DNA from: a virus
Lineage: Duplodnaviria; Caudoviricetes
Strand: one strand, 5' to 3'
Length of the DNA: 64,000 nt
IMG/VR virus record: IMGVR_UViG_2623620477_000001
Location: 1-64,000 of that record
The position numbers and the translations under genes were made by a program. Shown in pieces: positions 3,316 through 35,372 of this stretch; position 1 is the first letter of the stretch; the number at the start of each line of letters is the position of its first letter. The notes beneath the pieces are model-generated. The model did no database searches and was not told the DNA's origin. It saw only the letters and a program-made list of their open reading frames with translations.

Positions 3316-3606
3316 TTATTTCTTTTCTTTTTCTTCCAATTTGGTCTCAACTCTTACCAACGATTTCTGAATATCAGTAAGAGTGAGCATAATTGCATCG
3401 ATACTTTTATCGGTAGACTTTCTTTCTTCTTCGATTTTTGCCTGTAATGTTTTATGGTCGTTGCAAAACTTAGATGTCTTTTCTTCCACGTCTTTTTCCA
3501 ATTGTTCAAGTTTTGAAGTGAGTTTTGCCCCTTTCCAAACAAGGGCTAAAACTGGAAGTAAATAAATGACAGTACCAATTACATTGGTTAATACTTCACC
3601 GTTCAT
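3316..3606 (-). CDS. Single-TM coiled-coil lysis-cluster protein (holin/antiholin-like)
   Basis: N-terminal TM plus coiled coil; ATGA overlap with upstream holin. Confidence 0.6.
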   Translation of the reverse strand: MNGEVLTNVIGTVIYLLPVLALVWKGAKLTSKLEQLEKDVEEKTSKFCNDHKTLQAKIEEERKSTDKSIDAIMLTLTDIQKSLVRVETKLEEKEKK

Positions 3607-3881
3607 TTTTCGCCCCCGTCACTTTCACTACTCTCATTCTTGGTAAATAACTTTTGGAAGGTCTTAAATACAGTATCGTAGAAAATCGTTGCTCCCGATA
3701 CTCCGATAATTCCATAAAGAATCTTCTCTGGCAAATAAAAAGCGATAAGCACCATACAGACACCAACCAAAATGGTTACAAGTGTCCAAACACGCTTACC
3801 GCCTTTCTGTATAAGATTCTTAATGATTTCTGTTACACCTACTGTCGCAAGTGCGATTAAAAGTAACTCTGAATAATTGCT
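3603..3881 (-). CDS. Holin, 92 aa, AGC start (absent from ORF track)
   Basis: GAGGT-gggtaa-AGC then NYSELLLIALATVGVTEIIKNLIQKGGKRVWTLVTILVGVCMVLIAFYLPEKILYGIIGVSGATIFYDTVFK...; three hydrophobic segments, charged C-terminus; in-frame TAA immediately before AGC. Confidence 0.85.
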   Translation of the reverse strand, partial: SNYSELLLIALATVGVTEIIKNLIQKGGKRVWTLVTILVGVCMVLIAFYLPEKILYGIIGVSGATIFYDTVFKTFQKLFTKNESSESDGGEK

Positions 3882-3920
3882 TTACCCACCTCTGCAATTA
3901 TTCTACATCATAATCTTTTA

Positions 3921-4295
3921 CTACGCAACCGAAACTGGTTCGTTTGAAAGATATGATATAATTTTATCAACATCAGCAGATGTAATTTTAATCACACAAT
4001 CTTTCGGAGCAAACATAGGAATTTTCGGAATTGTAATTGAATATGAATCATATTCGTTCAGCACATTTTTTAATGTCTTTGCGAAAACATCAATATCATA
4101 CATTCCGTCTTGTTCTTTGATTACACTTGAAACAACAGGACTTTCAAGAAAATAATCGAGAATATCTTGATTCTCTCTCAATGCTTTCTTTGCCATACAT
4201 AGTGAAAACTTAGAATGTTTATCATCAATGTCATTTATCAAATCGTTGTGAATAAACTTTACAAGTGCATCTGCTATCTGTTTCTTAGTATACAT
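3921..4295 (-). CDS. Hypothetical protein (last gene of 7-gene cassette)
   Basis: 124-aa ORF with GGAGGT RBS, tightly packed. Confidence 0.6.
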   Translation of the reverse strand: MYTKKQIADALVKFIHNDLINDIDDKHSKFSLCMAKKALRENQDILDYFLESPVVSSVIKEQDGMYDIDVFAKTLKNVLNEYDSYSITIPKIPMFAPKDCVIKITSADVDKIISYLSNEPVSVA

Positions 4296-4296
4296 A

Positions 4297-32305: not shown

Positions 32306-33723
32306 TACTCATCCTCATTTGGAATTGGAATCCTACTCTTCTGTTCCTCATCAATTTCTGCCTGTTCTTCCTCGAATGTCTTATCAGATGCAATAATCTC
32401 ACCTTCTTGGAGATTTCTGAACATAGTCTTCTTAGAGATTGCTCCCTGTTGCCAAGCAGCGACATACTGTGCAAGGTCACTTGCAGAGAGTGCAGAAACA
32501 TCGTAGTCTGTATTGAATATTACTTGGTGTTTATCTTCTGGAACTTCCTTGCTAGATGACCATTCAAGATAAATCTTCAATAACTTGGTGAATACGATTG
32601 AGAAGTTGTTCGCAATATCAGCAAGGATAGAGTTCTCACCTGCTCTGTGGATTCGTGCAGTTTCTGCAGATTCTACTCCTTTACGCTCCTGTGAGATAAT
32701 CCTTGCTCCAAGGATAGCCATACGCTCTTCATCAGCGTTCATTGCATTTGCCAACTGATTACATCCGCTACCGCTGAACTCAAGATATTGCATACTTGCA
32801 CCTGCTGGAAGATTTTGAACAACTGAACCACCAAGTTTAAGAGGTTCTGAAGCAACTTCTACTCCATTTACCAATACAGTTGGAACATCTGCTCCCTGTG
32901 TCCAAGGTGTAGGAACGCCTGTCCAATGCAAACCATTTTCGTAGTCTGCTGACTTGCGATAGTGAGAAAGGTTTACGTTGATTAAGTCCTCAAGAATAGG
33001 CTCTTGTGGATAATCTGATGTTGATAGGAAATAGAATGGGATGTAATTGAATCTCTTACCTTTGATTTTTGGCTCTACTTTGTCGATTACTACATCTCTG
33101 TCATTGTAGAGAATCTGTACATAGTAGCCGTTCTCGTCAATCTTGCATACACGGTAATTGTTCCTCTGTTCAAGGGTAAAATCTGCCTTTACAACCTCTG
33201 TTTTCTCTCGGAAGATAACAAAGTCAAGATACTGCTTTCTACCGTCACTAGCCCAATGCCAATTGATGATGGACTCTGCCTTGTAATAGGTCATATACGC
33301 AGAAAGATTTGCATCCTCAAAATCTTTCTGACTTCTTACATTCTCCATTTTTGGCATATCAACTAATACACCACCCCATGCAGTAGTAAGAAAGTCCTTT
33401 ACTGTTTCAGAACAGAACTGATTAAGTGAGTGACCTTTTCCGTCTACGTTTTCAAGATACTTTTCAAATCCGTCTGGAATCTGTGTGATGATAGGCTTAC
33501 GGTTTATCATACCGCTTAAGCCATCAAGTGTTCTTCCTGTTGCGTTGAAGAACTGCGCCCTCATTATGTAAGCATTGTAGTCAGCATCATCCATTCCCGA
33601 TGCTCTTGGAAGATAACGTTCCTTGCGATACTTGATGTAAGTTTCACCACCAACTGCATCGCGACATTTCTCCCACTTCTTAATGAACTTCATATAAGAA
33701 CTACAACAATTCTGAATACTGCT
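32305..33723 (-). CDS. Portal protein (DUF4055-type); AGC start, 472 aa
   Basis: YLPR, RAQFFNATGRT, NLSHYRKSAD, ESAETARI; AGGAGG-aagcca-AGC ten codons above an ATG with no RBS. Confidence 0.88.
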   Translation of the reverse strand, partial: SSIQNCCSSYMKFIKKWEKCRDAVGGETYIKYRKERYLPRASGMDDADYNAYIMRAQFFNATGRTLDGLSGMINRKPIITQIPDGFEKYLENVDGKGHSLNQFCSETVKDFLTTAWGGVLVDMPKMENVRSQKDFEDANLSAYMTYYKAESIINWHWASDGRKQYLDFVIFREKTEVVKADFTLEQRNNYRVCKIDENGYYVQILYNDRDVVIDKVEPKIKGKRFNYIPFYFLSTSDYPQEPILEDLINVNLSHYRKSADYENGLHWTGVPTPWTQGADVPTVLVNGVEVASEPLKLGGSVVQNLPAGASMQYLEFSGSGCNQLANAMNADEERMAILGARIISQERKGVESAETARIHRAGENSILADIANNFSIVFTKLLKIYLEWSSSKEVPEDKHQVIFNTDYDVSALSASDLAQYVAAWQQGAISKKTMFRNLQEGEIIASDKTFEEEQAEIDEEQKSRIPIPNEDE

Positions 33724-33733
33724 TGGCTTCCTC

Positions 33734-35017
33734 CTAGATACCTATTACCCTTCCCTGTGACATTCTTACTCTATCCAAATCTTCACAACCATATCGTAAA
33801 GCGTCTGGAATATGAGAGAAAGCGTGTTCAGGGTTATTTGTTACGCAATCTGTCTTGCTATCTCGTTTCCAACAATAGTTAGAGAACGCTTCGATAGTAT
33901 TCGGACAGTTTTTGCTATGTATTACAATGTGATAGTCCTGTAGTTTTTGTATACCTCCAAGCACAGAACCACTTCCCTTACGACAGCCATGAAGTCCAAC
34001 CAACCCAAGTTTCTTCAACTCATTGATTGTTCGAGGATCTTCACTATCTCCCGAAATCATCGCATTTCTGAATCCCGCAGCAATCAACTCTCTTGCAATA
34101 GCAGAGTTTTCCATTGTTACTGCATAGAACTCATAATAAATATATATAATCTTGTTGAACGTATCACAATACGCACCAACAAAAGCTGTAGGGTCATTAT
34201 AACCGAAATCCATACCATTGCAAGAAACAAATTTAATTGGCTGTCTTAATACCTCTTGAATATTAAACTCTTTTACTTCCCAATTGTCATAAACAAGTCC
34301 GTCTGCAACACCCCAATCACCGAGTCCTTCAATGCGATAACGGCGCGGATTCTGTGTTTTCATAAGTTCAAACAACGCACGGTCATCATCACCCAAGAAC
34401 TCGTTACATTTATAATTGGTTGTAAGTGCAAGGATATCATCGTGCTTGAAGTCAAAGAATCGTTTCTTAAGCCAATGTCTATCACTCCAAGGGTTGAATG
34501 TAAGCGTTATCTGCTTAAACAACGGCGCGGGTAATTCACCACGAATAGACATATCAATCTTGTTGAAATCTGCTTCACTGTTTACTTGGTATGCCTCTTC
34601 AAACCACACCCAACACAACTGTCCTTCATCGGCAACGATAGAGGTAATACCCATTACATCGTCCATACCTCGGAAGTATATTTTCTGTCCACTCGGCTTA
34701 TATGTAAGGGTGTAACTTCCCTTCATTACTTTCCAAAGATGACGTACTCCTAACTGCTCCATAGCCCATATCAACTGGGCTCTTGTAGACTGTTTATTAA
34801 GGTATACGTGCTTTCGGATAACGAGAACATTCGGCTTGAGTCCGTACTTGTGATAGAACTCCATCATCTTGTATATATACCAAAGGGCAGTCGTACAGGA
34901 TTTCTTACTTCCTCGACTGCCTTTTACCACTCGGTAGCGACCTTTGAAGTTCCAAAACTCGTCATAACCTCCACCGACTACATCAGAGAGTTTTACGACC
35001 CTTCGCTCATTCTCCAT
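33734..35017 (-). CDS. terL: Terminase large subunit (PBSX family)
   Basis: KGSRGSKKS Walker A, WFEEA Walker B, LTFNP, GMDFGYNDP, HIPDALRY. Confidence 0.95.
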   Translation of the reverse strand: MENERRVVKLSDVVGGGYDEFWNFKGRYRVVKGSRGSKKSCTTALWYIYKMMEFYHKYGLKPNVLVIRKHVYLNKQSTRAQLIWAMEQLGVRHLWKVMKGSYTLTYKPSGQKIYFRGMDDVMGITSIVADEGQLCWVWFEEAYQVNSEADFNKIDMSIRGELPAPLFKQITLTFNPWSDRHWLKKRFFDFKHDDILALTTNYKCNEFLGDDDRALFELMKTQNPRRYRIEGLGDWGVADGLVYDNWEVKEFNIQEVLRQPIKFVSCNGMDFGYNDPTAFVGAYCDTFNKIIYIYYEFYAVTMENSAIARELIAAGFRNAMISGDSEDPRTINELKKLGLVGLHGCRKGSGSVLGGIQKLQDYHIVIHSKNCPNTIEAFSNYCWKRDSKTDCVTNNPEHAFSHIPDALRYGCEDLDRVRMSQGRVIGI

Positions 35018-35372
35018 CTTTCCCTATATCATCAACGAACATCGGACTTGTAATAGATATTGCACTTTCTGATTCAATCTGTGTTCTGTCGCTCCACTTA
35101 AATCTGTTCTTCATATTGAATATCCAAGTAACTGCATTTATCTTCTGTGTTCCCAAAGAACCTGCTCTTCCAAGTTTCTCCCACCAAGCCTCTGACAGTT
35201 CCAAACCTCTCTGATATGCTTCATTAAAGCGTTTATGCTCTTTACACCATCTGTAGAAGGTATCTCTTGAGATTCCCATATTTGCACATACTTCAATTAC
35301 AGATTCACCGTTTTCGAACATAGCAGGGAGTTGTTCAGCATATTCTTTCTTATAAGTACTTAATCTTGCCAT
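35007..35372 (-). CDS. terS: Terminase small subunit
   Basis: HTH GISRDTFYRW, WIFNMKNRFKWSDR; directly upstream of terL. Confidence 0.85.
   Translation of the reverse strand: MARLSTYKKEYAEQLPAMFENGESVIEVCANMGISRDTFYRWCKEHKRFNEAYQRGLELSEAWWEKLGRAGSLGTQKINAVTWIFNMKNRFKWSDRTQIESESAISITSPMFVDDIGKDGE

Follow-up and report, generated by a model that had tools for sequence, protein, structure and literature searches.

The first 64,000 bases of the 74,074-base, single-contig virus record IMGVR_UViG_2623620477_000001 (hereafter the window) belong to an integrated prophage of a gut spirochaete; the stretch is embedded in a larger assembly contig, and close relatives lie on contigs of Treponema metagenome-assembled genomes (MAGs). 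Seven genes in the late block of this prophage open with AGC behind a Shine–Dalgarno (SD) sequence, and the same block holds a gene for an initiator-like tRNA with the anticodon GCU. The best explanation, which we consider highly probable, is that this tRNA would drive the AGC starts of the seven genes, with delayed or silenced translation as the likely purpose. The evidence comes from the start sites themselves, from the structure of the tRNA and, above all, from the covariation of anticodon and start codon in related phages.

The AGC starts were found by reading stop-to-stop frames against the canonical open reading frames (ORFs), a looser scan adding the seventh, and protein identities were taken from PHROGs and Pfam. 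All seven genes lie on the minus strand within the late block (3603-33723), and each has a strong SD sequence (AGGAGG, AAGGAG, GAGGTG, GGAGGT or AGAGGGG) separated by a spacer of 5-9 nucleotides (nt) from an AGC that is itself preceded by A (Table 1). The nearest in-frame ATG, GTG or TTG lies 10 to 96 codons downstream and lacks an SD sequence, the greatest of these distances belonging to the first ATG of the tail tip gene. Residues 2-379 of the capsid align to positions 2-383 of the 385 in the phrog_283 profile. Six of the seven genes (portal, capsid, tail tube, tape measure, tail tip and holin) had been named in an initial annotation of this DNA, and an SD sequence with A-AGC is present at every one of them; that list was incomplete, the missing member being the 65-residue ORF of the head module, around which a scan returned only weak promoter matches and a hairpin. 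The product of the last gene in the block is here termed holin-like from its three hydrophobic segments and its position upstream of the membrane-protein, spanin-like and endolysin genes, where it heads the lysis cassette; no family match for it was found in Pfam or PHROGs. The same annotation had noted that other late genes retain ATG, and we see ATG behind an ordinary SD sequence in both terminase subunits, the putative scaffold, four neck or connector genes, the tail chaperones, the distal tail genes, the spanin-like genes and the endolysin. AGC also occurs in its ordinary sense, 41 times inside the seven genes that it starts.

As a control, we counted every SD-bearing codon that lies within 8 codons of the opening of a frame and precedes any canonical start by 10 codons or more. 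AGC scored 7 and every other codon 3 or fewer, most of the latter being neighbors of the same sites or falling in non-coding frames of the plus strand. One of the seven AGC counts, at 56203, is probably due to chance; it was rejected as a start, having a good SD sequence and ATG downstream, as were AGC codons at 39002 (T at position −1 and a GTGA stop/start overlap two codons downstream) and at 1845 (antisense to a plus-strand gene). The scan found no convincing AGC start in 36000-64000, and the initial claim that early genes lack such starts holds inside the window. It is less certain beyond the window, where a VRR-NUC gene of the early operon at genome position 71714 has GAGGTG, 6 nt and AGC, the codon forming a TAAGC overlap with the upstream stop. 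This site is ambiguous because a GTG lies three codons upstream, and homologues leave it unsettled because their N termini vary in length; the public entry for the gene starts at a GTG without an SD sequence. As a candidate, an AGC start here would fit late-acting translation of an early-transcribed gene.

Table 1. Features of the prophage (window positions, except where the genome is named)
Feature	Position	Strand	Start codon	SD sequence	Spacer	Match or remark
Portal	32305-33723	-	AGC 33723-33721	AGGAGG	AAGCCA	phrog_145, E 4e-124
65-aa head-module ORF	28462-28659	-	AGC 28659-28657	GGAGGT	AGCCCA	
Major capsid	25382-26521	-	AGC 26521-26519	AAGGAG	ACGCTA	phrog_283
Tail tube	21522-22778	-	AGC 22778-22776	AAGGAG	TAGCAA	PF18906 Phage_tube_2, phrog_290
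Tape measure	16923-19973	-	AGC 19973-19971	AGGAGG	7 nt	phrog_9959, PF20155
Tail tip/central fiber, 2650 aa	7781-15733	-	AGC 15733-15731	AGAGGGG	~8 nt	phrog_31 central tail fiber J
Holin-like, 92 aa	3603-3881	-	AGC 3881-3879	GAGGTG		AGC directly after in-frame TAA
Initiator-like tRNA, anticodon GCU	21300-21372	-				Rfam RF00005, ARAGORN at lowered threshold, model R1
Integrase	1-1113	+				Flanks minus-strand array
CI-type repressor	genome 72355-72972	+				Flanks minus-strand array, other side

The tRNA gene lies 150 nt downstream of the tail-tube stop, in the place just after the major tail gene that the initial annotation had assigned to it, and behind a perfect 8-bp inverted repeat; a scan for consensus promoters and terminators around it found nothing. 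It matches Rfam RF00005 with 38.2 bits (gathering score 29) and our family model R1 with 67.3 bits, and ARAGORN draws a cloverleaf with the anticodon gct when its threshold is lowered. We rejected the tRNA-Ser label that ARAGORN attaches to it, since bacterial tRNA-Ser is a class II tRNA with a long variable arm and the variable loop here has 5 nt. CCA is not encoded. C1 and U72 are unpaired, leaving no Watson–Crick pair at 1:72, as in bacterial initiators, and G2:C71, C3:G70 and A11:U24 are all present. In the Escherichia coli initiator, positions 1:72, 2:71 and 3:70 permit formylation and exclusion from EF-Tu, with G2:C71 and C3:G70 acting as formylation determinants, and the G:C pairs of the anticodon stem direct P-site selection. 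The anticodon region differs from that of the bacterial initiator, with GCU and U37 in place of CAU and A37, and the 7-nt loop GCGCUUG has C33 and U37 where a U and a purine are usual.

The decisive evidence that this tRNA reads AGC as a start is that anticodon and start codon covary in related phages. Relatives were collected by capsid-centered searches of genome, viral and metagenome collections (capsid identity 48-82%), and every relative's contig that continues beyond the tube gene has a member of this tRNA family there, recognized by R1. The anticodon is CUU in L022 and L114, whose private start codon is AAG, and CCU in L023, L034, L036, L038, L040 and L122, whose private start codon is AGG and is used by two to seven genes per contig. 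Portal, tube and tape measure start with AAG in L022 and the capsid with ATG; in L114, the tape measure alone starts with AAG, and portal, capsid and tube start with ATG. The AGG genes of the CCU contigs comprise the capsid, tube, tape measure, portal, tail tip (in L023 and L040), a Neck1-type neck gene, post-tape-measure genes and upstream genes. A loop-pattern scan added L214, with a CCU tRNA and a tape measure starting with AGG, and a survey across 151 genomes from the genus to which G001 belongs added a third prophage, in G003, in which the tRNA loop UUCCUCU holds the anticodon CCU, the portal starts with AGG, and the capsid, tube and tape measure start with ATG. The portal orthologue thus starts with AAG (L022), AGG (L122, L039 and G003) or ATG (L114), tube orthologues start at one and the same position with AGG, AAG or ATG, and tape measure orthologues share a start residue encoded by AGG, AAG, ATG or GTG. 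Of sixteen short contigs that do not include the tRNA region, 13, some of them mutual duplicates, have an SD sequence and A-AGG at the capsid start, and the three others, which are more distant, have ATG.

An automated count over nine contigs placed the cognate codon top or tied in seven. AGG scored 24 in the six CCU contigs, with 7 for AGC and 4 for AAG, and AGC scored 9 in the window genome, with 0 for AGG and 2 for AAG. Every contig of the clade that has the tRNA also has at least one cognate start. The tape measure is recoded in eight of nine clade contigs (window and L214 included; G003 has ATG), the tube in 10 of 12, the portal in five of six and the capsid in most. These observations lend strong support to the core of the initial annotation, in which selected late genes start at AGC with the help of a phage tRNA.

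The covariation extends to the base before the start codon. Position −1 is A at 34 of 37 cognate non-canonical starts, all served by tRNAs with U37, compared with 88 of 172 canonical starts (Fisher p = 1.9e-6; automated calls). L114 has G at −1 opposite U37, a possible wobble pair, and one gene of L036 has T. G003 has C37 in the tRNA and G at −1 of its single AGG start. Complementarity between initiator position 37 and the −1 base of the mRNA, including the A37U variant, raises translation in E. coli (PMC10018350). Other searches for relatives returned little: blastn of 21100-26600 against the phage collection gave no match, a search of IMG/VR for the D-arm and loop pattern gave 0 matches, and a single-protein capsid search of IMG/VR gave only two distant, ATG-using relatives without the tRNA. 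Nineteen IMG/VR stretches with the exact 16-nt anticodon arm were rejected as chance matches in coding sequence, with 27-37 of 73 positions alike and no tRNA.

The alignment of the nine tRNA family members has 92.6% of its cells paired, a value reached by none of 500 shuffles, with compensatory changes at 12 of 21 pairs, which supports a real tRNA under selection. Positions 1 and 72 are unpaired in all nine, and G2:C71, C3:G70 and G30:C40 are invariant. G31:C39 is kept in eight, pair 29:41 varies (A:U, G:C and U:A in three each), and pair 11:24 is A:U in two and U:A in seven. Across the clade, with the G003 tRNA included, the anticodon loops read CUCCUUU, CUCUUUU, GCGCUUG and UUCCUCU. The best non-phage matches to R1 are initiator tRNA(CAU) genes of the genus Treponema (58-68 bits, in 122 of 151 genomes), and elongator tRNAs reach at most 50.7 bits; by these scores, therefore, the phage tRNAs resemble the host initiator and not elongators. 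All 27 host-genus initiators inspected are near-identical, with C1 and U72 unpaired, three G:C pairs in the anticodon stem and A37. Identity values among the tRNAs fail to separate descent from the CCU or CUU tRNAs from a fresh copy of the host initiator.

Further tRNA genes of interest lie outside the clade. L197 (1501-1573, minus strand), on contig C228 of G001, another phage contig of the MAG that contains L022, encodes a tRNA(CAU) with C1 and U72 unpaired and U37, just upstream of ATG-started genes for a scaffold-like protein and an HK97-type capsid; it may represent the ancestral state. The loop-pattern scan also yielded initiator-bodied tRNAs in two unrelated viral contigs: L209 (4268-4339, minus strand) with the anticodon GAU, U1 and U72 unpaired and U37, and L213 (2939-3011, plus strand) with CCU, A1 and C72 unpaired and A11:U24. 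These two phages have no clear SD sites in the short stretches examined. Initiator-bodied tRNAs with other anticodons, such as the GAU of L209, may act alike elsewhere. A tRNA-like gene in L157 (13270-13340, plus strand; 40.6 bits to R1) has a normal C1:G72 pair and an 8-nt anticodon loop, for which ARAGORN names no anticodon, and is of another kind than the initiator family. Weaker R1 matches, in L049, L050, L027 and L062, come from Trp, Leu and Met tRNAs of the ordinary kind.

Homologues with canonical starts place the N termini of these proteins at or near the AGC codons. Four capsid homologues of 77-82% identity (P0003, P0005, P0007 and P0008) have methionine exactly at the AGC position, where the capsid genes of L022 and L114 have ATG. 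Canonical starts fall exactly at the AGC position in the tube of L114 (ATG) and the tape measure of L123 (GTG) as well, and the only two database homologues of the 65-residue ORF, P0241 and P0242, start with M-I-W aligned to its S-I-R. The ATG of the L114 portal lies 3 codons upstream of the AGC position and that of the holin-like homologue in L115 lies 2 codons upstream. An ATG- or GTG-using relative was thus found for six of the seven genes, and none was found for the tail tip gene. We retrieved 36 of the 120 capsid homologues listed and examined the 26 with at least 58% identity. Methionine stands at the AGC position in four; one is extended two codons upstream and keeps serine at the AGC position; and 21 begin at an internal methionine derived from GTG, TTG or ATG, downstream of the true start. 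The truncated entries include the public one for the window capsid (354 residues for 379, starting 25 residues late); the public entries for this prophage, P0001 and P0121 included, show this late capsid start and the GTG start of the VRR-NUC gene noted above. We attribute the N-terminal truncation to gene callers, because they cannot see the true start; as judged from these alignments, annotation pipelines hide private start codons, and truncated N termini are common across the capsid family.

We propose that the prophage encodes an initiator tRNA in which GCU has replaced CAU as the anticodon, and that this tRNA would be made during late transcription, when the block that contains both it and its client genes is expressed. 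The unpaired 1:72 position, G2:C71 and C3:G70 would permit formylation by methionyl-tRNA formyltransferase and keep the molecule off EF-Tu; as these acceptor-stem features are kept, the tRNA can be expected to join 30S initiation complexes and to pair with AGC behind an SD sequence, with U37 probably pairing with the preceding A as a fourth base pair. The seven late genes would then be translatable only via the phage tRNA, and internal AGC codons would be read as serine by the host tRNA. We read the tRNA as a private initiator because its initiator features are conserved and because initiators engineered to carry other anticodons start translation at the matching non-AUG codons (PMC11744186). 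From the conserved features, we infer that the charged tRNA would be formylated; its probable use in the ribosomal P site follows from the covariation with start codons. Our best guess for the amino acid it carries is arginine, from C35-U36, which we take to be shared with Arg tRNAs; the CUU relatives are presumably Lys-like. Serine is not expected because the long variable arm is missing, and charging with methionine is very unlikely because the anticodon has been lost. Two apparent signs of transcription were rejected, an RNA run whose contigs cover only the capsid region of relatives and a 700-fold depth over the tRNA bin in X3 that is summed over the tRNAs of other organisms.

Several observations weigh against this proposal. 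ARAGORN does not call the window tRNA at its default settings, the anticodon loop is odd at four positions (G32, C33, U37 and G38), and the anticodon stem keeps G30:C40 and G31:C39 but has U29:A41, so that two of the three canonical initiator G:C pairs are present. We know of no synthetase rule that clearly charges a GCU tRNA without a long variable arm, and E. coli ArgRS uses A at tRNA position 20, where the window tRNA has U. A scan of 70 further ORFs recognized no synthetase, formyltransferase, deformylase or initiation factor. Two points bear on the purpose: the tRNA gene shares the late block with its clients and gave no promoter match, and for this reason a lock on leaky expression is weakened; and L114 and G003 each have a single recoded gene, a reduction that would also fit near-neutral drift.

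A delay or threshold nonetheless remains a plausible purpose, and a lag set by accumulation of the tRNA is the most economical one that we can infer. The recoded genes encode nucleators or builders of head and tail and the holin-like protein; genes for enzymes and adaptors have ATG. Synthesis of the nucleating and structural proteins and of the holin would wait for the tRNA to accumulate and lag behind that of the late proteins started with ATG, and the AGC genes would stay silent as long as late mRNA is merely leaky. The initial annotation went further, proposing one or two gatekeeper genes per late module. Tabulating the recoded orthologues upholds this in part: the same four genes (tape measure, tube, portal and capsid) are mostly, and repeatedly, recoded, but the set varies from one to seven genes and takes in neck, post-tape-measure and upstream genes. 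Its other suggestion, a backup for destroyed host tRNA-fMet, is disfavored because an ATG start keeps many essential late genes dependent on the ordinary initiator.

The strongest competing account, which we consider unlikely but by no means negligible, is that recoding has no adaptive purpose. Once a phage copy of the initiator had gained a new anticodon, starts would have drifted between ATG and the private codon, and, with one or more essential genes in need of it, the tRNA would have become 'addictive'; in addition, it could hinder recombination between related phages. Drift would explain why the recoded set varies so widely (seven genes in the window, three in L022, one in G003 and one in L114 as far as its contig shows), why orthologues flip between ATG and the private codon, and why a cognate start accompanies the tRNA in each contig of the clade that carries it. 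It explains less well why tape measure, tube, capsid and portal are repeatedly recoded and terminase, connector and lysis enzymes are not, and why the pairing of A at −1 with U37 is maintained; a switch of anticodon, moreover, needs coordinated changes at several genes, which argues for selection.

An improbable alternative is counter-defense, in which a private initiator keeps virion genes translatable or unrecognized when a nuclease attacks the initiator or other tRNAs, the diversity of loops reflecting an arms race. Phage tRNAs that replace cleaved host tRNAs are known, and loops and anticodons differ here between phages with 80%-identical capsids. However, terminase subunits, scaffold, connectors, chaperones and endolysin keep ATG, so that loss of the host initiator would still abort infection, and no nuclease or inhibitor gene was recognized nearby in PHROGs and Pfam comparisons or ORF scans. 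Finally, it is very doubtful that the tRNA is no initiator at all but an elongator supplement, decoy or pseudogene, with the genes starting downstream or at AGC via the host initiator: the missing default ARAGORN call, C33 and U37 in the loop and the internal ATG, TTG or GTG starts of public annotations would suit this idea, but those internal starts lack SD sequences and would remove conserved N termini (the capsid profile aligns from residue 2), relatives have methionine at the AGC position, AGC differs from AUG at two positions, a Ser elongator needs a long variable arm, 1:72 is mismatched in nine of nine members as other stems covary, and, in what appears largely to refute it already, the start becomes AGG precisely where the anticodon reads CCU, and AAG where it reads CUU.

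With an initiator tRNA(GCU) as the preferred reading for this prophage, we consider it likely, at a somewhat lower level of confidence, that Treponema-associated temperate phages share a natural, evolvable orthogonal initiation code with four-base pairing and non-Met N termini, in which AGG is ancestral and AAG and AGC are derived, and which works as a phage-made RNA switch.

A single long minus-strand gene array fills the space between the integrase and repressor genes, the early genes preceding the late block. By PHROGs and Pfam, the early genes include an excisionase-like helix-turn-helix protein, VRR-NUC, RecT, SSB, NinG and a DnaC-like loader; the late block runs from the small terminase (35372) down to the endolysin (2432). 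Two ATG-started, moron-like genes of the head module separate the portal gene from the head-morphogenesis genes, LuxS (S-ribosylhomocysteinase, PF02664, E 3e-51) and a Stealth CR2-family gene, at 30925-31380 and 31370-32305 on the minus strand. The tail assembly chaperones form a pair at 19949-20398 and 20371-20808 (minus strand), in which the second frame has TTTTTTA at its opening and lacks a start codon, as is usual for a programmed frameshift product; the same layout occurs in L022, L023, L040, L214 and G003. Just upstream of the small terminase, 35411-38996 (minus strand) holds a run of DNA-modification-type genes encoding an N6/N4 methylase fragment, a ParB_N protein, a PAPS-reductase/DUF3440 protein and a SAM methyltransferase.

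If our reading is correct, the initiation code can be reassigned in nature, and phages possess a further layer of late-gene control. It would explain the systematic N-terminal truncation of capsid, portal, tube and tape measure entries in databases and imply that start codons are widely misannotated in phage genomes. It would also supply ready-made orthogonal pairs of initiator and start codon, including evidence for a fourth base pair between positions 37 and −1, and raise the questions of which synthetase charges such tRNAs and how non-Met N termini are processed.

Initiation at AUG-family codons by a CAU initiator is treated as near universal. The phage family shares with bacterial tRNA-fMet and phage tRNA-Met(CAU) the hallmarks of the acceptor and anticodon stems, including the unpaired C1 and U72 found in the host genus, but differs in its non-CAU anticodon, U37 in place of A, the frequent loss of the third G:C pair, and A11:U24 in two of nine members. 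Phages that recode stop codons with suppressor tRNAs, reportedly to gate lytic or late genes (Borges et al. 2022 and related work), likewise use a tRNA with an unusual anticodon to make a subset of mostly late or structural genes translatable. Stop-codon recoding acts in elongation, whereas the AGC system would reassign an initiation codon via an initiator-type tRNA; all genes of the window are open under table 11, with no in-frame TAG, TGA or TAA for a suppressor to read, and the anticodon of the tRNA is GCU. Near-cognate initiation by the normal initiator, which PMC11744186 gives as GUG, UUG, the AUU of infC and rare CUG and AUA, also places a non-AUG start behind an SD sequence, sometimes with a regulatory role. 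A near-cognate codon departs from AUG by a single base and requires no tRNA of its own, whereas AGC departs by two bases, AGG and AAG have the middle base changed, and all three are matched by dedicated tRNAs.

The closest counterpart is engineered. Synthetic biologists have altered start codons through the initiator anticodon since about 1990, as in the amber initiator (CUA/UAG) and, reportedly, in preprints on an i-tRNA(AAC) (10.1101/2021.05.25.445580 and 10.64898/2025.12.21.695813). PMC11744186 describes 31 engineered E. coli anticodon-mutant initiators. Our search covered open full-text literature, leaving subscription journals and supplements outside its scope, and returned engineered systems only; on the comparative evidence given here, the phage tRNA and its codon appear to be a natural orthogonal pair of initiator tRNA and start codon for which we found no natural precedent. 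The engineered and phage systems have in common an initiator body with a non-CAU anticodon that starts translation at a complementary non-AUG codon behind an SD sequence, and a start codon that keeps its ordinary sense inside genes. The engineered initiators are laboratory constructs; the phage pair, by contrast, would be natural, confined to a subset of late genes and diversified into GCU/AGC, CCU/AGG and CUU/AAG, and it is further set apart by a U37 matched to the A at −1.

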